Virus record (IMG/VR): IMGVR_UViG_3300020810_000992
Span: 1 to 64,000 of that record
Origin: a virus
Strand: one strand, 5' to 3'
DNA: 64,000 bases
Part shown: positions 3,005-54,780 of the stretch, piece by piece
How positions within the stretch are numbered: the stretch's first letter is position 1
Layout: each line of letters starts with the position of its first letter
Translations under genes and position numbers: made by a program
The notes under the pieces: model-generated
Database searches by the model: none
What the model was told of the DNA's origin: nothing
What the model saw: the letters and a program-made list of their open reading frames with translations, nothing else

Positions 3005-3286
3005 ATGCAAATAACAGAGATCACTTCTGACCTTGAAGAAAAACAAATTTGGGGTCGCAGAGGAAAAAAATTAGTACGTAAGTATCGTTGCACATTAGGC
3101 AAACGTAAGGGCAGAATTGTTGCTTCTCCTGCTCAGTGTTTCGCATCTCCTAATGTTAAAGCTAAGATGCAAATGAAACGTACTAGAGCAAGATTAGGCA
3201 ATAGAATGGCACGTAAAGCTCGCAGAACTAAACGTATTAATCCAGCATCGATTGCATTACAAAGATTAAATAAGAGAAGTAGATGA
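3005..3286 (+). CDS. highly basic protein (paralog 1), putative DNA-binding internal protein
   Basis: K/R-rich; shares VRKYRCTxGxxKGRIVAxPxxC with the next ORF. Confidence 0.75.
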   Translation: MQITEITSDLEEKQIWGRRGKKLVRKYRCTLGKRKGRIVASPAQCFASPNVKAKMQMKRTRARLGNRMARKARRTKRINPASIALQRLNKRSR

Positions 3287-3597
3287 ACATTCAAGATGTA
3301 TTAGTTGAAGGAGCAGTTGCAATATTTGGTAAGCGTGGGAACAAGATGGTTCGCAAGTATCGTTGTACCAGTGGCCAGAAAAAAGGTCGTATTGTTGCAA
3401 AGCCTCAAACATGTAATACAGCCGTTAAAGTTGGAAAAAGTGTAGGAGCTAAAAAAGCTAAATCACGTAAAAGTGCATTAATGAAAGTTAGATCTGGTAT
3501 AACAAGAAAAACGAGTGCGGCATCAAAGAGAGTTGCAAAATTAAATAAATCTAGATTAAAGCCTACTAAACGTAATAAAACCCGGAGAATGAAATGA
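3283..3597 (+). CDS. highly basic protein (paralog 2)
   Basis: Same VRKYRCT..KGRIVA motif; ATGA overlap. Confidence 0.75.
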   Translation: MNIQDVLVEGAVAIFGKRGNKMVRKYRCTSGQKKGRIVAKPQTCNTAVKVGKSVGAKKAKSRKSALMKVRSGITRKTSAASKRVAKLNKSRLKPTKRNKTRRMK

Positions 3598-46270: not shown

Positions 46271-47020
46271 ATGTTACTTCAAGAGGCAAATACAATGATG
46301 GAACTTCAACGTAAGGCATTACCTTTGAAACAAGTTAGTACAGTAGATGCACTAGCAGTTGCATATGCGGCTTACCGCATTAACAACAATACTTACAGTA
46401 AAGACACTCGTCGCTTCTCAGAAGAAACACCTACTCAATTTGACAACAAGAGTCTTGTGCGGTACTACTGGGAAAAGAAACACAATGTAGCAGAAGCACA
46501 ATGGATTCCTACAGACTTCGTAATGTTTGAGCCCACTGAAGAAGACTATGCTAGTGTACAAGAAGCACTCAAGTGGATGAAGCGTTATGTAATGATTGGC
46601 TTAGGTGAGCTAGACAGCTTCAAAGCAGATATGGTTACAGAACTTAACAAAGAACAAGTACCGTTTAAGGGTATGGGTCGTATTGCCTTTGCGCCAGAGT
46701 TTATCAAGCGTGATATGCATGAAAGCAATCTTAAGAAAGAGATCCGTGTAGAGTATCGCGATAGCCAATACTTAGGCAAAGAAAAGGATAGTGTAGAAGC
46801 AGTGATTGCTATCCTTGACAAGCGTTATAGCACACAATGGGAGAGCTATAACTACACAGCAGTTACTACAGAAGGTAACCTAGTGAGCTTTATGAACAAG
46901 TTTGCATATGATGTAGGCGCTATGCTACGCTGTAAGGCTAAGGTAAAAGCACAGACTAAGAACAAGTTGTTCGAAGCAAACGAAACTAGACTAAATTACG
47001 TTAAACTTTATAAGGTGTAA
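46271..47020 (+). CDS. hypothetical protein with probable C-terminal OB fold
   Basis: C-terminal beta-rich region ending ETRLNYVK. Confidence 0.7.
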   Translation: MLLQEANTMMELQRKALPLKQVSTVDALAVAYAAYRINNNTYSKDTRRFSEETPTQFDNKSLVRYYWEKKHNVAEAQWIPTDFVMFEPTEEDYASVQEALKWMKRYVMIGLGELDSFKADMVTELNKEQVPFKGMGRIAFAPEFIKRDMHESNLKKEIRVEYRDSQYLGKEKDSVEAVIAILDKRYSTQWESYNYTAVTTEGNLVSFMNKFAYDVGAMLRCKAKVKAQTKNKLFEANETRLNYVKLYKV

Positions 47021-47022
47021 AA

Positions 47023-47250
47023 ATGAAAACTAAATTTGATAATACGTGTACAGTTACATGTACACATAACGATAATGTTGTAGAAGGCGAAGTTGATAAT
47101 TTTAGAGAAAAAGATTCGATGAGCGTATATATTGCAACAAACAAAATCCATTTTAAATGGAATGGAAAAACTTATGTAGGAAATATGGCAGGTATGGAAT
47201 TTACTACACCTGGTCCAACTGCATATTCATACAATGAAGGGAGACGATAA
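47023..47250 (+). CDS. hypothetical protein
   Basis: RBS AAGGT; 75 aa. Confidence 0.7.
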
Positions 47251-47251
47251 T

Positions 47252-47869
47252 ATGCCACTAGTACCAATGGTGATTGAAAAAGAAGCTCGCGGAGAGCGTT
47301 CATACGATATTTACAGTCGTTTGATGAAAGACCGTATTGTTATGCTAAACGGTCCAGTAGAAGATCATATGGCAAATCTAATCGTGGCGCAGTTGTTGTT
47401 CCTTGAATCAGAAGCACCTACTAAAGATATTAGTTTGTATATTAACTCGCCGGGCGGTGCAGTTACAGCAGGACTTGCTATCTACGACACCATGCAGTAC
47501 ATTAAGAGCGATGTGCGTACTATTGTAATGGGTCAAGCATGTTCAATGGGTTCATTCCTAGCACAAGCAGGTGCCGCAGGTAAGCGCATTGTGCTACCAG
47601 AAAGCCGTACAATGATCCATCGTGTTAGCTCAGGCACACGTGGTACAAGCGGTAGTGTGTATGTACAAGAGCTAGAGTTTGAAGATGCTCGTCGTTCTAT
47701 GGAAGAATCAAAGAAAGTAAACAAGCGTCTTACAGAGTTGTATGTTAAGCACAATACGGCAAATAAGACGTATGAAGAAATGGCCGAGACTATGAAGTTC
47801 GATACATTCCTTACTGCACAAGAAGCAGTAGAATGGGGACTTGCAGATTCAGTAGCGGAGAAACGATAA
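47252..47869 (+). CDS. clpP: ATP-dependent Clp protease proteolytic subunit
   Basis: [26 protein letters not shown] (catalytic Ser), MIH, D.FLTAQEA.EWGL.D. Confidence 0.96.
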
Positions 47870-48057
47870 TGCAAGTGCAACCTAAAGATACAAGCAAGGG
47901 ACACTTTTATGTGAGTCTTGCTAAGAGTGCTCTGAGACTAATTGGCGCAAGTTGTTTTATTGGTTTAGGGTATTTTCTAAGTCTTCCTTTAATGTTAGTG
48001 GGCGGTGTACTACTATTTGCCGCAGAAGTGCTAGGCATTGTTGAGGAGTTGGTATGA
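47869..48057 (+). CDS. small membrane protein
   Basis: TAATG coupling; two hydrophobic segments. Confidence 0.7.
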   Translation: MQVQPKDTSKGHFYVSLAKSALRLIGASCFIGLGYFLSLPLMLVGGVLLFAAEVLGIVEELV

Positions 48058-48236
48058 GCGATGGAGGTAAAGGCAGTGGAAGAAGAAAAGGTGCAGACGA
48101 TGAAAAATACAGAAACAACTACGACAGAATCTTTGGTAAGCGAGACAGTAGCGAACCTAAAGGGGATTCCGACACGAGAAGAACTAATGGAGATGCTCCA
48201 CAAGGAAGTATTGGAAATAACATTCCTAAAACTTGA
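48054..48236 (+). CDS. small hypothetical protein
   Basis: RBS GAGGAG; MSDGGKGSGRR...YRNNYDRIFGK; overlaps the next gene. Confidence 0.55.
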   Translation: MSDGGKGSGRRKGADDEKYRNNYDRIFGKRDSSEPKGDSDTRRTNGDAPQGSIGNNIPKT

Positions 48237-48459
48237 CGGTGATGAACGTACAATGCCTTGTACACTTATTCCAAGTTATCTCCCTCCTGCTAAAAAAGAC
48301 GCTCCGTTGACTCAAAAGAAAGTTCGAGAGATTTCAGACAAGGTTGTAGCAGTTTGGGCATTAGAGAGTAATGCCTTTCGTAGCTTCCGTTATGATCGTG
48401 TAAAAGAGGTAAAGGTACTCGAAGGTCTATGGAGAGGCACAACTGATGAAAACGTATAA
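48061..48459 (+). CDS. WYL_2/Sm-like SH3 beta-barrel protein (start may be 48100)
   Basis: ITFLKLDGDERTMPCTL...VW.LESNAFRSFRYD. Confidence 0.75.
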   Translation: MEVKAVEEEKVQTMKNTETTTTESLVSETVANLKGIPTREELMEMLHKEVLEITFLKLDGDERTMPCTLIPSYLPPAKKDAPLTQKKVREISDKVVAVWALESNAFRSFRYDRVKEVKVLEGLWRGTTDENV

Positions 48460-48622
48460 GTACGAAGACTTATTTTCAGACATTCCAGATGATCCTGAAA
48501 ATGTGTTGCTAACTTTTCCTCCTGAGATTATGGAAGAAGCAGGATGGAAAGAAGGCGATACACTTAGATTTGAAGTAGTCAATGGCGGCCTTTCAATTAT
48601 AAAGGTTGACAATGTTTCATAA
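48446..48622 (+). CDS. AbrB/MazE-like small DNA-binding protein (not in ORF track)
   Basis: RBS GGAG/GAGG; LLTFPPEIMEEAGWKEGDTLRFEV. Confidence 0.7.
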   Translation: MKTYKYEDLFSDIPDDPENVLLTFPPEIMEEAGWKEGDTLRFEVVNGGLSIIKVDNVS

Positions 48623-49208
48623 ATTCTTTCCTACGTTAATTGCAGAATTTGATCTTAGTAAAAAAGTAGATAATGATACTATCCTAAAGAAAATAGGAAT
48701 TAGTGGTCTACAGATGCATGGCATCTTAAATAAGGGATTGAGCAGTTACCTAGGTGGATATGATTGTTTGTTAACACGATTAGCAATGCACGATTTACGC
48801 AGTGCTATTCAAGAGTGTCTTAATGAGTATTGTAAAGAAGCAGGTCTAGAACAAAATAAAATTGTAAACAGTTGGTGTAATGTATTAAAAGAAGGCGGCA
48901 ATGTTAAACGACACAGACATGAAAAATCAGTACTAAGTGGTGCTTACTACCCAGTGAGCGATGCAGACGACTGCCCGTTGTTTATTGAAAATCCCAATAC
49001 TGTTTTTAAAATGACTGAAAGTAAAGTTAATGAAACAGAATACAATACAGAACGTGTAGGCTTTACTACTGAAGCAGGTAAACTAATTATTTGGCCAAGT
49101 TACTTGTATCATGAGACTCCTCGAAATGCAAGTGATGATCGATACACGATTAGTTTTAATACACTAGACTTGTCCTATATTAATTCTTTACATAAATTAG
49201 AAGATTAG
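48612..49208 (+). CDS. putative 2OG-Fe(II) oxygenase (TIGR02466-like)
   Basis: SWCN...HRH..SVLSGAYY...LIIWPSYLYH...RYTISFN. Confidence 0.82.
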   Translation: MFHKFFPTLIAEFDLSKKVDNDTILKKIGISGLQMHGILNKGLSSYLGGYDCLLTRLAMHDLRSAIQECLNEYCKEAGLEQNKIVNSWCNVLKEGGNVKRHRHEKSVLSGAYYPVSDADDCPLFIENPNTVFKMTESKVNETEYNTERVGFTTEAGKLIIWPSYLYHETPRNASDDRYTISFNTLDLSYINSLHKLED

Positions 49209-49255
49209 ATAAAAAAAGTCTTGACAATAGATATAGAAGGTGTTATATTAATAAT

Positions 49256-49708
49256 ATGAAAAATACATTAGCAATGGCATGTGTGGCACTAGCGATAGCA
49301 GGTCCTGCATATGCAAATAAAACTAGTTACGCAAACATTGAGGATCACTATAAAACAGTTATCCAACAGAGTCCGTATAAAGTAGAAGTATGCAGAGATG
49401 TGCAAGTACCTACAAAAGGTGCTAATACTTTTGACAAGGACTCAGCAATCATTGGCGGCATCATTGGCGGCATCATTGGTAATCAAGTTGGTAAAGGTAG
49501 TGGCAAGGAAGCCGCAACCGGCGTTGGTGCTCTAACAGGTGCTATTATTGGTGGTAACAAACAAGGACCTACAACTTATACAACACAACGTCAGTGCGAA
49601 ATTGAAACTCGTTACAAAGAAACACAGAAGGAAGTATACAGTCATAGCACAGTTACTTTCAGCGATGAGAATGGTCGTAGCTATACGCTCAGTTTTCAAA
49701 AGAAGTAA
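49256..49708 (+). CDS. glycine-zipper secreted protein (YcfJ-like)
   Basis: Signal peptide; IIGGIIGGIIGNQVGKGSGKEAATGVGALTGAIIG. Confidence 0.85.
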   Translation: MKNTLAMACVALAIAGPAYANKTSYANIEDHYKTVIQQSPYKVEVCRDVQVPTKGANTFDKDSAIIGGIIGGIIGNQVGKGSGKEAATGVGALTGAIIGGNKQGPTTYTTQRQCEIETRYKETQKEVYSHSTVTFSDENGRSYTLSFQKK

Positions 49709-49804
49709 TTGACATGCACTAAATAAAGTGCTAATATAATAACGTAAACTAAAAAGGAGAAGTGCTAATACGGTTGATATAACCGTAAAAGGATAAATAA
49801 ATGT

Positions 49805-50149
49805 ATGAAAACTACATTAAAAGGATCCTTAGGATTAGTACACATAATGACTGACTTAACTGAAAAAGGTTATGAAGTCTTTACTCCACTTAGTGAGCAT
49901 TCAACAGTTGATTTGATTGCTTACAAAGATTATAAGTGCGAACGCATTCAAGTTAAGTATAGAGAACCATATCGTAACAGAGTAGAGGTTCCTATGCACA
50001 CAGTACAAAATGGTAAGAAAGCGCCATATGATACTAAAGAAATTGACTTGTTTGCAGTTTATTGTCCAAGTTGGGGCATTAAATATGTTCCACCAAAAGA
50101 AGACGGTAAAGGCTACTTTCTAAAAGAAGCAGACTTTACTAACGAATAG
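49805..50149 (+). CDS. PD-(D/E)XK endonuclease (group I intron-associated type)
   Basis: KG..G...DL..KGYEVFTP...VDLI...RIQVK...Y...EIDLFAVY. Confidence 0.75.
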   Translation: MKTTLKGSLGLVHIMTDLTEKGYEVFTPLSEHSTVDLIAYKDYKCERIQVKYREPYRNRVEVPMHTVQNGKKAPYDTKEIDLFAVYCPSWGIKYVPPKEDGKGYFLKEADFTNE

Positions 50150-50238
50150 GAAGATTGGCCGAGTGGTTTAAGGCGGGGGATTACTAATCCCTTGTACGTG
50201 AGAGCGTACCGTGGGTTCGAATCCTACATCTTCCGCCA
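50149..50238 (+). tRNA. tRNA-Ser(ACT)
   Basis: Cloverleaf GGAAGAT/ATCTTCC, G73, encoded CCA, long variable arm, anticodon loop TT-ACT-AA (50183-50185). Confidence 0.9.
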
Positions 50239-50239
50239 A

Positions 50240-50313
50240 GCGGGTATTGTGTAATGGTAAGACCTCAGATTTCCAATCTGATGATAGGAGTTCGATTCTC
50301 CTTACCCGCTCCA
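50240..50313 (+). tRNA. tRNA-Gly(TCC)
   Basis: GCGGGTA/TACCCGC, U73, CCA, anticodon TCC 50272-50274. Confidence 0.92.
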
Positions 50314-50333
50314 ACAACAACTAAGGAGGACTT

Positions 50334-50528
50334 ATGTTCTTTGGAGTAGCTCTAATCATGGCTTTGTTCGTCCATGACAATAAAGAGTTTTTCGACACAG
50401 TCGAACAGAACAGAAAAGACGGAATGTCTTGGCATTATGTAGGCAAGCAGGAACCAGATAATAATCCTGCTATTACAGTCAAAGACTTTCAAAACAAAGA
50501 TGTAATTTTTTGGAAGATGGATAAGTAG
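50334..50528 (+). CDS. small hypothetical protein within the tRNA cluster
   Basis: RBS AAGGAGG; N-terminal TM. Confidence 0.75.
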   Translation: MFFGVALIMALFVHDNKEFFDTVEQNRKDGMSWHYVGKQEPDNNPAITVKDFQNKDVIFWKMDK

Positions 50529-50535
50529 AATGTTA

Positions 50536-50611
50536 GCCGGCGTGGCACAGTTGGTAGCGCAAGGGTTTTGTAAACCTTAGGTCGGGAGTTCGAGTCTCTC
50601 CGCCGGCACCA
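50536..50611 (+). tRNA. tRNA-Thr(TGT)
   Basis: GCCGGCG/CGCCGGC, CCA, anticodon TGT 50569-50571. Confidence 0.92.
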
Positions 50612-50631
50612 TTTAACTTATCCAAAATAGA

Positions 50632-50660
50632 TTGACAACGATAAATAAAGATAGTATAGT
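50632..50660 (+). promoter_or_regulatory. sigma70-type promoter for the leader-peptide/tRNA-Trp/tRNA-Cys unit
   Basis: TTGACA-N17-TATAGT, with ATAAATA in the spacer. Confidence 0.8.
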
Positions 50661-50692
50661 ATACACATACTAAAGAAACAAGGAATAGATAA

Positions 50693-50761
50693 GTGTTAAG
50701 AACATCACAACAGTCATCATTACAGTGCTGGTGCCCTTCAAAAGGAAGGGGTATGTCTTAA
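50693..50761 (+). CDS. attenuator leader peptide MLRTSQQSSLQCWCPSKGRGMS
   Basis: AAGGA 8 nt before GTG; TGC TGG TGC at 50726-50734; stop codon lies inside the antiterminator strand. Confidence 0.75.
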   Translation: MLRTSQQSSLQCWCPSKGRGMS

Positions 50762-50826
50762 CGCGACTTTGTAAAAAGTTTATTTTAGACAAGCCCCTAG
50801 CACTAATAATGTTAGGGGCTTTTTTT
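50734..50826 (+). promoter_or_regulatory. transcription attenuator (1:2 protector, 2:3 antiterminator, 3:4 terminator)
   Basis: CCCTTC/GAAGGG; AGGGGTATGTCT pairs with AGACAAGCCCCT; AGCCCCTAGCA/TGTTAGGGGCT followed by a T-run. Confidence 0.8.
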
Positions 50827-50836
50827 ATGAGTTTTT

Positions 50837-50920
50837 GTCGGGTCGGTACAGTTGGAGTGGTACACTGGTCTCCAAAACCAGGACGAGAGTCAGGGGGTTC
50901 GAATCCCTCACCCGATGCCA
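50837..50920 (+). tRNA. tRNA-Trp(CCA), atypical with an extra variable arm
   Basis: GTCGGGT/ACCCGAT, G73, CCA end, anticodon CCA 50872-50874, variable GAC-GAGA-GTC hairpin. Confidence 0.85.
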
Positions 50921-50925
50921 AATAT

Positions 50926-51000
50926 GTGAGCGTGGCGGAATGGTTACGTACCGGATTGCAAATCCGTGTAATGCAGGTTCGAGTCCTGTCGCTCACTCCA
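50926..51000 (+). tRNA. tRNA-Cys(GCA)
   Basis: GTGAGCG/CGCTCAC, U73, CCA, anticodon GCA. Confidence 0.92.
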
Positions 51001-51019
51001 ATTATAAAGGATAGGAATA

Positions 51020-51337
51020 TTGCAAAAACGAGGCGAATTTAATTTAACTGCAACACTGTACGACAAGCGAGGGCGTATTCTCGCTGTAGGCACAAACAGT
51101 TATTCAAAGAGTCATCCTTTGCAAGGTAAGTTTGCTGTTGAAGCAGGAAAGCCTGATGCAATATTCCTACATGCAGAAATTGATGCACTACGTAGATGTA
51201 AGGACTGGTCGTCGATTAGAAAGATTGTAATTGAGCGTTATGATATAAACGGTAATCCAAAACTTGCAAAACCATGTAAAGTGTGTCAACATGCAATTGA
51301 AAGCATAGGTATTCCAGAAATTGAATATACTGAGTAA
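51020..51337 (+). CDS. zinc-dependent nucleoside/tRNA deaminase-fold protein
   Basis: LHAEIDAL and KPCKVC (HxE...PCxxC); TTG start. Confidence 0.85.
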   Translation: MQKRGEFNLTATLYDKRGRILAVGTNSYSKSHPLQGKFAVEAGKPDAIFLHAEIDALRRCKDWSSIRKIVIERYDINGNPKLAKPCKVCQHAIESIGIPEIEYTE

Positions 51338-51411
51338 ATTCTAAATACAAATCAGGTTGACAATCTTAACTAATGGTGCTACACTATATAAAATAAACAA
51401 GTGAGGCAAAT

Positions 51412-52719
51412 ATGAGAACACAACCACAAGATATTATCGCAAAGCTAGAAGCTGATAACAGTAAGTTAGCTAAACAAGCAATCTTACAAGAAGCACTTGA
51501 CGAAGGTGTTCCAGAGTTTTTTGAAGGCATTAAACTAGCACTTGATCCACTTGTAACATTTGGTGTTAAGAAAGTTCCAGAGCGTACAGACGTACTTACA
51601 GGACAAGGATTGGATTGGAATTCATTCAAATATCTTGCTAATCAACTTATCAACCGTGAACTAACAGGACATGCGGCACGTGATGCTATTGAACTAGCAA
51701 TGAGCGTTGCAACTACAGAACAATGGAATGGATTTTATAGACGTATCTTAATCAAAGACCTACGTTGCGGTGTAAGTGAAAAGACTGTTAACAAAGTAGT
51801 GCCAGGTTGTGTTCCTGTGTTCACTTGTGCTCTTGCACACGACTCAGCTAACCATGAAAAGAAAATGGTTGGTAAGAAACAGATTGAAATCAAACTAGAC
51901 GGTGTTCGTGTACTAGCAGTATGTCGTGATGGCAAAGTAGAATTGTTTAGTCGTAACGGCAAACAGTTTCATAACTTCCCTCATATTATTGCAGAGATTG
52001 AAGAAGTATTAGCAACTAAGCCTGCACCATATGACTGTGTGCTAGACGGTGAAGTAATGAGTGCTAACTTTCAAGATCTAATGAAGCAGGTACATCGTAA
52101 AGATAATGTACAAAGTGAAGATGCTGTTCTACACTTGTTTGATTTTATTCCACTAGAAGATTTCCAAAAAGGTGTATGGAATAAGCCACAAACTTATCGT
52201 AGTAACTTAGTCAAGTATTGGGTACTAGAAAATGAAAGCGTTTTAAAGCACGTACAAGCGTTGGACTGGGAAGAGGTAGACCTTAGTACTCCCGAAGGTG
52301 AACAACGCTTTGTAGAGCTTAATAAAGCGGCTGTAGACGGTGGTTACGAAGGTGTAATGATCAAAGACGTTGATGCACCCTATGAGTGCAAGCGGACTCA
52401 TGCTTGGCTCAAAGCCAAACCATTTATTGAAGTAACACTTTCTGTTACAGACGTAGAAGAAGGAACAGGAAGAAATGAAGGACGACTTGGGGCTCTTGTA
52501 TGCGCTGGGCAGGATGACGGGAAAGATATTAGGGTTAATGTCGGCAGTGGCTTTACGGATGATAACAGATCCACTTTTTGGACTGATCGCGATGCTCTGC
52601 TTGGTCAGTTGGTGGAAGTTCGCGCTGACGCAGTAACTCAAAACCAAGACGGTACTTACAGTTTGCGTTTCCCACGCTTTAAAACATTTAGAGGTTTCGA
52701 GGTTGGAGAAAAAATTTAA
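51412..52719 (+). CDS. ATP-dependent DNA ligase
   Basis: EIKLDGVR (KxDG), VLDGE, GYEGVMIK, WLKAK, SLRFPRF. Confidence 0.95.
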   Translation: MRTQPQDIIAKLEADNSKLAKQAILQEALDEGVPEFFEGIKLALDPLVTFGVKKVPERTDVLTGQGLDWNSFKYLANQLINRELTGHAARDAIELAMSVATTEQWNGFYRRILIKDLRCGVSEKTVNKVVPGCVPVFTCALAHDSANHEKKMVGKKQIEIKLDGVRVLAVCRDGKVELFSRNGKQFHNFPHIIAEIEEVLATKPAPYDCVLDGEVMSANFQDLMKQVHRKDNVQSEDAVLHLFDFIPLEDFQKGVWNKPQTYRSNLVKYWVLENESVLKHVQALDWEEVDLSTPEGEQRFVELNKAAVDGGYEGVMIKDVDAPYECKRTHAWLKAKPFIEVTLSVTDVEEGTGRNEGRLGALVCAGQDDGKDIRVNVGSGFTDDNRSTFWTDRDALLGQLVEVRADAVTQNQDGTYSLRFPRFKTFRGFEVGEKI

Positions 52720-52720
52720 G

Positions 52721-53404
52721 ATGGAAATAGAATTTATTTGTGGCGACCAGCATGTTTTAAAATATTTTCCTATTCGACCAGCTAAAGAAGTATTGCCCGA
52801 ATGGTACAGTAAATTAAAAGCAAACGACCCTACTATTGCAAAATGTGTGCCTGTAAGAGATATGATTACATCAGGATACATTATTCCTAACGCTTACGAA
52901 CAGGCAGTAGGAGTAGAATTTGATGGTGAAGTTGATCAAGTAGGTAGAATTTATCCCGTAGAACGTATTGGCGAATTTTATACAGTACTAGATCATATGA
53001 CAGACCCAAACGCCGGACATACACATGATCAGTGTCCTGTTGATATAAAAGGTAAGAAAAAAGGTTATTTCAAAATTAATCTTCCTTGGCGTATTAAGAC
53101 TCCAAAAGGTTATAGTTGTTTGTTTGTACAACCGTTTTATCAATTTCAAGATGACATTACTGTTATGCCAGGTATAATTGATACAGACGAATTTGATTTA
53201 TCAATGATTAACTTTCCGTGTTATCTAAATGATGTAGAAGCATTTTTAAAACCTGGACGTCCATTAGTACAAGTTATTCCATTTAAAAGAGATAATTGGA
53301 CACATAGTTTAAAATTTGAAGAGCCTACTAAGTCTAGCAAAATGAATTTTTTCTTACATAATATGTACAAAAGAGCATTTCATAACAAAAAACGATTCGA
53401 ATAG
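52721..53404 (+). CDS. conserved-type hypothetical phage protein
   Basis: PEWY...TIAKC.P..D.ITSGY...PWRIKTPKGYS...PGIIDTD...G.PLVQVIPFKR. Confidence 0.75.
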   Translation: MEIEFICGDQHVLKYFPIRPAKEVLPEWYSKLKANDPTIAKCVPVRDMITSGYIIPNAYEQAVGVEFDGEVDQVGRIYPVERIGEFYTVLDHMTDPNAGHTHDQCPVDIKGKKKGYFKINLPWRIKTPKGYSCLFVQPFYQFQDDITVMPGIIDTDEFDLSMINFPCYLNDVEAFLKPGRPLVQVIPFKRDNWTHSLKFEEPTKSSKMNFFLHNMYKRAFHNKKRFE

Positions 53405-53472
53405 TCAAATTAGGTTGACTTTTTAATAAGTTACATATATAATAAAGCATTAACAGTTAGGAGACTTATGGC

Positions 53473-54780
53473 ATGGCTACTGCAAAATCAATTTTACAAA
53501 AACCCAAAAAGAAAGTTGTACGTGGAGCTCCACGTATTAGACGAGGGTCAAAAATTTCATCTCCTAGTTGGGAAGGTTGGGAAGAATGGACAGGCGAACA
53601 GATCCATCGCCATAGAGAATTTTGCCGTGCTTTTTATTATGAAAACTTTAAGCCTGTTGACTTATATCAAGCAATATTTAAGTGGATGGAAACCAGTGGC
53701 GACTACACTAAAGAGCAAGTTAAGCAAGCAAAGTCTGCTCCTAATTATGTACTAAGCGTTACAGCAGGTACTGTCGCACATACATTACTAGATGGTGCTC
53801 CTGACTACAACGAAAAGGAAAACGCATACTGGGAAAGCCTTCCTGGTACAATGGGCAGTAAAAAGCCTGTAAGCGAGTTTTTGAAAAAACGAATTGAAGA
53901 AGCGATTGAAGTAGGTTCAAAAGTTGTAGAAGTTAAGAAGGAAGAAGAAAAAGAAAAGTCCAATGTATATGTTCCTACTATCCAAGAACGTATTAGAGAA
54001 CAAGTTGGACTTCAGATGGAAGCAATCGACGAATGGCTAGATGGGTGGATACGAGACCCAAAGTCGTTTAATCCTAAGGGATTTGACTTTAAAACACATT
54101 TCCAAAAAATGGCTGTTACACAAGCACATGCTAGAAAAATTGCGGCATTTTTTGATGGAGAAATTGCTGAATATACAGAATTACTAAATCCGCCAACTAA
54201 AGCAAAAATTGCAAAGATGGACGAACATGCTCAAGATATGTTACAGCAACTTAAAGAAGGGTATTCACATTTATCTAAAGATGATGTTAAAAAGATTCTT
54301 GAAGCATTAGAAAATATCCAACAAGCATGTCAACTAGTAGTTGATACTAGCAAAGCAACTCGTAAGACTAGAACACGTAAGCCAAAGAGTGCTGATAAAC
54401 TAGTTGAAAAACTCAAGTATCTTAAGGTTGATAATAAGTTTAGTCTTGCAAGTGTTAATCCTGTAGACGTTGTAGGTGCAAGCGAGCTTTGGGTGTTTAA
54501 TGTTAAAACACGTAAACTAGGCAAGTATGTTGCACAGAATATAGACCCAACAGGTAGTCGTCGTGCAGGAAGTGGGCTTAGTGTAAAAGGTACTACGATT
54601 ATTGGGTTCAATGAAGAATTGAGTGTGCAGAAAACGCTACGTAAGCCTGAAGAAAAAATTAAAGAATTTAAAGGTGCAGGAAAAGTTAAGTTACGTACAT
54701 TTTTAGAGGACATTAACGCTGTAGATATCAAACTCAACGGACGAATTAATACTGATACTATACTTCTCAAGGTAAGTTGA
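53473..54780 (+). CDS. conserved-type hypothetical phage protein
   Basis: 435 aa; own sigma70 promoter and RBS; C-terminal KTLRKPE...NGRINTDTILL. Confidence 0.85.
   Translation: MATAKSILQKPKKKVVRGAPRIRRGSKISSPSWEGWEEWTGEQIHRHREFCRAFYYENFKPVDLYQAIFKWMETSGDYTKEQVKQAKSAPNYVLSVTAGTVAHTLLDGAPDYNEKENAYWESLPGTMGSKKPVSEFLKKRIEEAIEVGSKVVEVKKEEEKEKSNVYVPTIQERIREQVGLQMEAIDEWLDGWIRDPKSFNPKGFDFKTHFQKMAVTQAHARKIAAFFDGEIAEYTELLNPPTKAKIAKMDEHAQDMLQQLKEGYSHLSKDDVKKILEALENIQQACQLVVDTSKATRKTRTRKPKSADKLVEKLKYLKVDNKFSLASVNPVDVVGASELWVFNVKTRKLGKYVAQNIDPTGSRRAGSGLSVKGTTIIGFNEELSVQKTLRKPEEKIKEFKGAGKVKLRTFLEDINAVDIKLNGRINTDTILLKVS

Follow-up and report, generated by a model that had tools for sequence, protein, structure and literature searches.

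We suggest that a leader sequence at positions 50632-50826 of a 64,000-nucleotide (nt) stretch of DNA from an uncultured marine giant phage is likely to be a ribosome-mediated transcription attenuator of the type known from trpL of E. coli, gating transfer RNA (tRNA) genes for Trp and Cys and probably also a small deaminase gene behind them. The stretch, referred to below as the window, covers positions 1 to 64,000 (one strand) of IMG/VR record IMGVR_UViG_3300020810_000992, an 85-kb contig that was judged 24% complete and has a G+C content of 38%. The phage probably makes the leader-gated tRNAs only when ribosomes are slow in reading a set of sensor codons within the leader. The comparative signal behind this proposal is unusually clean for a purely computational case, with the leader codons being rewritten as the tRNA cargo changes. 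To our knowledge, leader-peptide attenuation has been described solely for genes of amino-acid biosynthesis, transport and aminoacyl-tRNA synthesis (synthetase genes).

Leader anatomy

The leader promoter is made up of a -35 element (TTGACA, 50632-50637), a 17-nt spacer and a -10 element (TATAGT, 50655-50660), and is among the four best sigma-70 matches within 47000-54000. In 65 aligned relatives, the -10 element shows little or no variation at T-A-T-x-x-T, and the upstream TTGAC is also present in the relatives' sequences. Downstream follow a Shine-Dalgarno (SD) sequence, a 22-codon open reading frame (ORF), an intrinsic terminator and the two tRNA genes (Table 1). An earlier sequence-only reading of the window had named the promoter, the SD sequence, the ORF with its single run of Cys and Trp codons (TGC TGG TGC), and tRNA-Trp(CCA) and tRNA-Cys(GCA) directly downstream; each of these was recovered at the site given for it, the tRNAs by both ARAGORN and Rfam.

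The same reading had described three mutually exclusive pairings of trpL-type geometry, and these are indeed present in the window. The 1:2 pairing (50734-50750) and the 2:3 pairing, or antiterminator, were found where they had been placed. The terminator and its U-tract are there too, with an extent that needed correction: instead of one block at 50792-50826, a 12-pair stem spans 50791-50821 and the T-run occupies 50820-50826. A fourth pairing had been missed, in which the start-codon region (segment A) binds the region around and just past the stop codon, hereafter the start:post-stop helix. Segment 2 has two alternative sets of partners, namely segment 1 together with segment A, or segment 3.

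The gap between the T-run and tRNA-Trp is 10 nt long and has no promoter-like site inside, so both tRNAs should be transcribable only through the terminator. An internal promoter candidate (TTAACG-N17-TATTTT) was considered as a bypass and rejected, as its transcripts would still carry the GC-rich part of the terminator.

Table 1. Coordinates of the leader and the genes behind it within the window
Feature	Position	Strand	Remarks
Sigma-70-type promoter, TTGACA-N17-TATAGT	50632-50660	+	11/12 consensus matches
Shine-Dalgarno sequence, AAGGA	50680-50684	+	8 nt 5' of the GTG start at 50693
Segment A, start-codon region	50692-50705	+	pairs with 50752-50765; duplex -12.9 kcal/mol
Leader ORF, 22 codons, MLRTSQQSSLQCWCPSKGRGMS	50693-50761	+	GTG start, TAA stop at 50759-50761
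Sensor codons TGC TGG TGC (Cys-Trp-Cys)	50726-50734	+	sole Cys and Trp codons of the leader ORF
Segment 1, CCCTTC	50734-50739	+	pairs with 50745-50750, -9.0 kcal/mol
Segment 2 (2a GAAGGGG, 2b TATGTCTTAACGCG), includes the TAA stop	50745-50765	+	
Small hairpin within the antiterminator loop	50765-50780	+	6 pairs; GACTTT and AAAGTT conserved in relatives
Segment 3, antiterminator 3' strand and terminator 5' arm	50787-50802	+	
Segment 4, terminator 3' arm, and run of seven T	50810-50826	+	
tRNA-Trp(CCA), 84 nt, long variable arm	50837-50920	+	ARAGORN; Rfam tRNA, 40.6 bits
tRNA-Cys(GCA)	50926-51000	+	ARAGORN; Rfam tRNA, 59.1 bits
Cytidine/deoxycytidine monophosphate (dCMP) deaminase-fold gene, 105 residues (HAE ... 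PCxxC)	51020-51337	+	Pfam PF00383, 28.9 bits, cut-off 25

Distribution of the leader family

Relatives were collected with a 23-nt segment-2 pattern, which is free of sensor codons and of tRNA sequence. It matched 92 stretches in viral contigs and at least 118 in metagenome contigs. The pooled viral and metagenome matches listed comprise 229 hits (8 of them without a leader ORF by the finder, at contig ends or in another frame), representing 126 distinct leader-plus-tRNA-cluster combinations. In 21 of these the cluster is cut by the contig end or there is no tRNA in the sequence, leaving 105 complete combinations. Among the matches listed, tRNA-Trp is the first tRNA in 104 of the 105; the exception (L242) has tRNA-Cys followed by tRNA-Trp. 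Related contigs reach 275 kb and 347 kb in length.

The surroundings of a neighbouring DNA ligase gene give a second sample. This ligase has 589 relatives in viral contigs, of whose loci the best 80 were examined, and tRNA-Trp lies upstream of the ligase in 45 of these 80. Directly in front of that tRNA-Trp stands a homologous leader in 26 cases, a divergent leader in 5 (L023 and L074-L077) and a plain promoter without terminator in 13, while the context is cut by the contig end in 1. In the loci examined, 181 distinct contexts in front of the first tRNA of a cluster were also compared, and it is only at tRNA-Trp that a terminator abuts the tRNA; three tRNA-Arg(gcg) genes do have an upstream terminator of the ordinary gene-end kind, but there a promoter follows.

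Leader codons co-vary with the downstream tRNA genes

The TGG codon is invariant in the 65 aligned relatives. The flanking Cys codons, which the sequence-only reading had included among the control codons, are variable and elsewhere give way to codons for Tyr, Ser, Gln, Ile (AUA), Glu or Arg. The choice among them follows the tRNA cargo. Within a sensor window spanning W-3 to W+3 around the Trp codon, the tRNA types of Table 2 are accompanied by a cognate codon more often when the tRNA gene is present downstream than when it is not. In total, the sensor window contains a cognate codon for 174 of the 199 non-Trp tRNAs; when the clusters were shuffled among the leaders, this number averaged 122.6 and never exceeded 137 (5000 permutations). 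Met(cat) tRNAs, some of which may be AUA-reading Ile tRNAs, were pooled with Ile(tat) for the AUA test; for Ile(tat) alone, the AUA codon is found in 8/8 leaders with the tRNA vs 8/50 without.

Table 2. Leaders with a cognate codon in the sensor window, among 105 complete combinations
tRNA	With the tRNA downstream	Without the tRNA downstream
Cys	68/70	23/35
Ser(UGA)	14/16	6/89
Tyr	3/3	6/102
Gln	13/14	17/91
AUA-reading, Ile(UAU) or CAU tRNA (AUA codon)	18/18	7/87
Glu	3/5	2/100
Arg(ACG)	3/5	7/100
Phe	1/1	2/104

The co-variation between control codons and tRNA identity, for which the sequence-only reading had proposed a test, is concentrated around the Trp codon. With Trp and Pro left out, the sensor window gives 126 matches of 151 against 74.5 +/- 3.7 expected (z 14), the N-terminal part of the leader 50 against 29.4 (z 5.7), and the codons 3' of the sensor window 23 against 20.3 (z 1.3, not significant). 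This lack of a 3' signal fits the model, because a ribosome held there would cover segment 2 and could not favour read-through.

Shared ancestry was addressed by two controls. In the first, all 19 variable codon families were ranked by their association with each tRNA type. The cognate family comes first for 6 of 9 types (Cys, Ser, Tyr, Gln, Ile-AUA and Glu); for Arg(ACG) and Gly it takes third place, and for Arg(GCG) the eleventh. Linkage by descent gives the cognate family no advantage in such a ranking. In the second, independent pairs were drawn from the supported branches of a tree built from the leader with the sensor window masked (3 of the 105 rows lacked enough upstream sequence); pooled over tRNA types, ~12 pairs changed in the predicted direction and ~0.7 in the opposite one. 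Individual leaders illustrate the same trend. Two near-identical leaders differ by one base before Trp, giving Cys in one and Gly in the other, and their clusters carry tRNA-Cys and tRNA-Gly, respectively. Leaders reading Arg-Trp-Cys-Pro-Glu-Gln precede Trp, Pro, Gln, Cys, Glu and Arg tRNAs, and tRNA-Tyr is found solely behind Tyr-Trp leaders. These data support Trp as the putative invariant sensor, with the neighbouring codons forming a variable set matched to the cargo.

Reading frame

The frame of the leader was assessed with two landmarks that do not depend on it: TGG, recognised from the sequence around it, and the start codon, chosen by how far it lies from an SD-like motif. Such a motif followed by a start codon is present in 119 of 120 distinct relatives, the remaining one having no SD by the motif list. 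In 118 of the 119 distinct leaders TGG is in frame with the SD-defined start, and the single exception is a mis-picked start. The Trp codon lies 9-12 codons from the start, at a distance of 27, 30, 33 or 36 nt, meaning that length changes occur in whole codons. A stop codon intervenes between start and TGG in only 1/119 leaders in frame 0, vs 73/119 and 86/119 in frames +1 and +2. This pattern is that of a translated ORF and marks the leader as a candidate coding sequence; neither a non-coding RNA nor a T-box-like element would easily account for it. The ORF, the Trp codon and the terminator preceding tRNA-Trp are conserved in the relatives, in agreement with the sequence-only reading.

Conserved pairings

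The terminator is kept in relatives, with 94.2% of alignment cells paired and three pairs showing two-sided changes, a score that was reached by 0/500 shuffles. The start:post-stop helix has 88.4% of cells paired, compared to 23-44% when the partner is slid, and 25 cells with double changes vs 7.9 +/- 2.2 in shuffles (0/500). At the first base of the start codon, 48 rows have an AU pair and 17 a GC pair, with no row left unpaired. An ATG start goes together with a TGA stop and ..T, and a GTG start with a TAA stop and ..C, in 42 + 16 of 58 sequences with no exception; on a weak tree, this switch occurs twice. These observations support the start:post-stop helix as the closure of the untranslated leader. 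The helix also explains why segment 2 is nearly invariant in the 65 relatives, third codon positions included, and it explains the conserved look of the peptide N-terminus. The antiterminator is paired in 89.6% of cells in the 65 relatives, and the potential to form the hairpin between segments 1 and 2a is kept in 57 of 60 distinct sequences. The divergent leaders L023 and L074 differ in sequence but keep the same four elements, namely the start:post-stop closure, a small hairpin where the Trp codon lies, an alternative 2:3 pairing and the terminator.

The invariance of the stretch from segment 2 to the inner hairpin at third codon positions suggests a constraint at the RNA level, and could point to a switch that does not depend on decoding at all: direct binding of tRNA-Trp as in T-boxes, a TnaC-like nascent peptide sensing tryptophan, or a protein acting on segment 2. 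The position of Trp 8-10 codons before the stop is also broadly like that in TnaC. We consider a switch of this kind very improbable indeed. The triple pairing of segment 2 with segments A, 1 and 3 explains its invariance, insertions and deletions between start and TGG are multiples of three with the other frames closed in 73 and 86 of the 119 leaders, the Rfam search returned no T-box match up to E = 10, the terminator is intrinsic rather than of the Rho type, and the amino acids next to Trp differ according to the tRNA cargo instead of forming a conserved peptide motif.

Folding of the leader RNA

The free leader RNA (50668-50828) folds with -48.9 kcal/mol, compared to -29.3 +/- 3.6 kcal/mol in dinucleotide shuffles (z -5.4), into the terminator, the 1:2 hairpin and the start:post-stop helix. 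When 50745-50800 is folded by itself, the antiterminator (50747-50758 with 50787-50798) is the minimum free energy (MFE) structure at -21.7 kcal/mol (z -5.5), a stability reached by 0/200 shuffles; the terminator is slightly less stable, at -19.1 kcal/mol (z -4.9). In stepwise folding, untranslated RNA closes on itself once segment 2 emerges, and segment 3 stays unpaired until it is complete, with the terminator as the final state. When 50711-50743 is masked to mimic a ribosome that holds TGG in its A site, and the RNA is cut before segment 4, the antiterminator forms. With a ribosome placed at the stop codon, the antiterminator is unable to form in the window.

The same states were computed for 57 leader variants (L042 was left out). 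Before segment 4 is made, the antiterminator is part of the MFE structure in 48/57 variants as free RNA, in 35/57 with a ribosome mask at Trp and in 2/57 with a ribosome at the stop codon. In the full-length RNA, the terminator prevails in 55-56 of the 57. Segment 2a starts 13-19 nt after the first base of TGG in the 57 variants, and the stop codon lies 24-30 nt after it in 54 of them.

Once released, the leader RNA would be compact and stable. On a rival reading, the leader is an unregulated small transcription unit with its own promoter and terminator, coding for a micro-peptide or giving a small RNA, that happens to lie beside the tRNAs. These would be supplied by a steady leak past the terminator, and leaky terminators are common in phages. 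This would leave unexplained why an antiterminator competes for the 5' arm of the terminator, why an invariant Trp codon is kept in frame and its neighbours co-vary with the tRNAs, and why placement before tRNA-Trp is so strict (104/105). Further to that, the 13 ligase loci of the best 80 that have a plain promoter instead of the leader show no terminator. We therefore regard an unregulated unit as very unlikely.

Proposed mechanism

From these features we infer leader translation, ribosome stalling, a direction of switching and a physiological trigger, combined as follows. Transcription would begin at the promoter of the leader itself. In RNA without a translating ribosome, the start-codon region would pair with the post-stop region and segment 1 with segment 2a, leaving segment 3 free; the terminator would then form and transcription would stop 10 nt before tRNA-Trp. 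A ribosome that reaches the stop codon would cover segment 2, and the terminator would form again, so that termination would be the default in both the untranslated and the fully translated state. When a charged tRNA is scarce, a ribosome would be held at the Trp codon or one of its neighbours, covering segment 1 and leaving segment 2 free. The antiterminator would in this case form first and RNA polymerase would read into the tRNA genes.

The geometry is compatible with this proposal: given the known footprint size of ribosomes, one with TGG in its A site would end about where segment 2a begins. The distance from start to Trp is close to one footprint, which would leave room for a second ribosome on the start region, possibly holding the closing helix open while the first one stalls. 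The terminator wins at full length, meaning that the switch, if real, must be kinetic, as in classical attenuators.

Because the products would be the very tRNAs that relieve the stall, the circuit would amount to negative feedback on tRNA supply. The sequence-only reading had favoured starvation or anticodon-nuclease defence as the trigger; plain feedback on tRNA supply accounts for the data equally well. Natural triggers may include host shut-off, a mismatch in codon usage and tRNA cleavage by host defence. A wider proposal, which we regard as possible but rather doubtful, is that codon-matched leaders are a general and evolvable tRNA-pool sensor of large phages, rewritten for each tRNA cargo for closed-loop control and firing also on host anticodon nuclease or shut-off, with tRNAs being replaced on demand. 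An attenuator of this kind would explain how large phages avoid the cost of unneeded tRNAs, and would give a direct readout of the host tRNAs that become limiting during infection. The leader is a compact, ~160-nt, sigma-70-driven part, which makes it testable in ordinary laboratory bacteria.

Weighing the attenuator reading

A number of observations speak against attenuation, or at least weaken the case for it. On the structural side, the antiterminator shows no covariation (the observed value equals that of shuffles, and only 5 cells are changed on both sides), as its two strands hardly vary; it is the weakest structural link of the model, argued for by conserved complementarity and energy. 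The 1:2a hairpin, solid in the window, is weak in most relatives (mean -5.0 vs -3.4 kcal/mol in shuffles) and beats 95% of shuffles in only 10/60 sequences. At equilibrium, the terminator wins in 55/57 variants despite the ribosome mask at Trp.

On the codon side, the independent pairs are too few for significance in any single tRNA type. Some tRNAs have no cognate codon in the sensor window (Gly 0/3, Arg(GCG) 0/8, Lys 0/2, Ala 0/1 and Ser(GCU) 0/2), and Cys codons remain in 23 of the 35 leaders that have no tRNA-Cys downstream. In L242, the sole cluster of the 105 with tRNA-Cys before tRNA-Trp, the leader reads …Asn-Trp-Pro-Pro… and has no Cys codon. Pro codons are present in all 105 leaders, with or without tRNA-Pro, and give no signal; there is also just a single Trp codon.

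The last two points would suit an attenuator that reports general translation capacity, that is, whether ribosomes keep pace with RNA polymerase, for instance during host shut-off. Trp would then be no more than a convenient slow codon and the Pro codons after it a possible generic slow spot, and the closed untranslated form does terminate whatever the codons. We find this unlikely given that the codons adjacent to Trp follow the cargo, with the cognate family first of 19 for 6/9 types, that the signal is limited to the codons at which stalling would free segment 2, and that the leader is found, in the loci examined, only before tRNA-Trp-led clusters.

RNA libraries do not help the attenuator reading. 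The stretch is contained in 20 sequencing runs, 7 of them recorded as RNA, all labelled salt marsh metagenome, and in four of the RNA runs Logan contigs bridge the terminator (e.g. 50194-50952, 50285-50952 and 50209-50952). Such contigs cannot show transcript ends or levels and may stem from DNA carry-over, so nothing was drawn from them. One contig stopping at 50829 was considered as a transcript end and discarded, as it continues in a strain variant.

The tRNAs behind the leader and neighbouring genes

The tRNA-Trp(CCA) of the window has a long, stem-forming variable arm like that of a class II tRNA, and its Rfam score is below that of its neighbours. Among 53 distinct tRNA-Trp genes of relatives, both ordinary 74-78-nt forms and long-arm forms of 84-88 nt occur. 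Many relatives have a structured insert of ~90 nt, closed by a 9-nt inverted repeat, between the T-run and tRNA-Trp (L012, at about 3258-3341, L059, L099, L100, L102, L119, L124, L136, L141, L148, L152, L164 and L167), and a second insert type is found in L090 and L128; in the loci tested, these inserts matched no Rfam family at gathering score. In L120 and L023, a 15-codon mini-ORF with its own SD and the motif Trp-Arg-Trp (MTDSEYWRWMKSQVE and MTASEYWRWMKDNIQ) lies between terminator and tRNA-Trp, and may be a second Trp-sensing element or a remnant. Behind the divergent leader of L074-L077, at about 1455-1610, ARAGORN calls a tRNA-Trp that is not listed by Rfam; over the 90 nt before it, the sequence is similar to the 5' half of tRNA-Trp from the leader family, and the gene may be an interrupted or rearranged one.

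In the clusters of L086, L101, L148 and L159, Ile(tat) tRNAs of 92-94 nt have a long extra arm. These clusters also contain tRNAs called Met(cat), and their presence coincides with leader ATA codons. Some of the Met(cat) calls may hence be AUA-reading Ile tRNAs, which would need lysidine.

The deaminase-fold gene begins 20 nt past tRNA-Cys. There is no promoter-like site at 51000-51020, and because the next one is found only at 51357-51385, the gene is probably co-transcribed as the last gene of the attenuated unit. On the other side, a PD-(D/E)XK endonuclease of 114 residues (49805-50149; Pfam PF11645, 64.7 bits) lies directly 5' of a tRNA-Ser(ACT) gene at 50149-50238. In three RNA-library runs, contigs join 49739 to 50148 with 3 other letters replacing 408 nt; the endonuclease gene is hence strain-variable, a pattern that fits a mobile endonuclease of the homing type situated among tRNA genes. 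The tRNA-Ser has A at position 34, and together with the minimal deaminase raises the question of tRNA editing.

Searched with the DNA of 50100-51400, the phage collection gave matches, to T4-like phages, over no more than the tRNA-Ser/Gly part, or 8% of the query, and none over the leader. Protein searches of the same collection gave at most 36% identity for the ligase and at most 33% for the ORF at 53473-54780, with no cultured close relative found among the records available, and PHROGs assigned no function to the small neighbouring ORFs.

Comparison with known systems

The nearest published system is the trn operon of Anabaena sp. PCC 7120, which, according to the accessible part of PMC8421152, comprises 26 tRNA genes and is induced under translational stress, and, according to that of PMC10272220, is controlled by the ribbon-helix-helix repressor TrcR. 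As far as these texts describe it, the operon resembles the proposed phage unit in that extra tRNA genes are silent by default and come on when translation is impaired (PMC8421152, PMC10272220); it differs in being cellular, repressor-controlled and without a codon-matched leader. The terms "attenuat-", "leader" and "terminator" have no occurrence in the accessible part of PMC8421152. In the accessible parts of papers on related marine T4-like phages, there is mention of tRNAs, of promoters and of terminators, but of no attenuator (PMC7029224, PMC9004378). A full-text literature search, with subscription journals largely outside it, found no published attenuator of tRNA genes.

The leader belongs to no Rfam family, which is a further point against equating it with a known attenuator. 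In a scan of 49500-51500 only the tRNAs reach gathering score; the leader scores 19.3 bits with Trp_leader (RF00513, gathering score 41) and 22.2 bits with Thr_leader (RF00506, gathering score 55). Weak matches to PyrR, Thr_leader, Trp_leader and small RNA families (E 0.04 to 5) all overlap the terminator and were given no weight.

Like T-box riboswitches, the phage leader would let the sensing of specific tRNAs decide between terminator and antiterminator. Unlike them, since T-boxes bind the tRNA directly and have no translated ORF, its conserved frame points to translation, and no T-box was among the Rfam hits up to E = 10. In TnaC, Rho-dependent termination is relieved by a ribosome arrested at the stop codon, and the peptide has a conserved motif; the phage leader has an intrinsic terminator, and the residues flanking its Trp vary with the tRNA cargo. 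The mixed codons of thrL and ilvL let one switch sense several charged tRNAs, and the phage leaders combine Trp with Cys, Tyr, Ser, Gln, Ile-AUA, Glu or Arg in a similar way. Unlike in thrL and ilvL, the mixture mirrors the downstream tRNA genes rather than the end products of a pathway, and it is rewritten between phages.

The closest likeness in design is to trpL of E. coli (Rfam RF00513). Both have a promoter-proximal short ORF with control codons ~10-13 codons from the start and a stop codon inside segment 2, and the phage leader would, like trpL, terminate in both the untranslated and the fully translated state. With trpL and the his, leu and phe leaders the phage element has in common an intrinsic terminator and, as predicted from folding, the exclusive 1:2, 2:3 and 3:4 pairings. 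Unlike trpL, the phage leader has one Trp codon instead of two, adds the start:post-stop helix, and would control tRNA genes rather than biosynthetic enzymes. Its product would, again unlike that of trpL, feed back directly on the sensed quantity: the speed of codon decoding and the tRNA that does the decoding would coincide in one circuit, making this the simplest possible homeostat of translation capacity.

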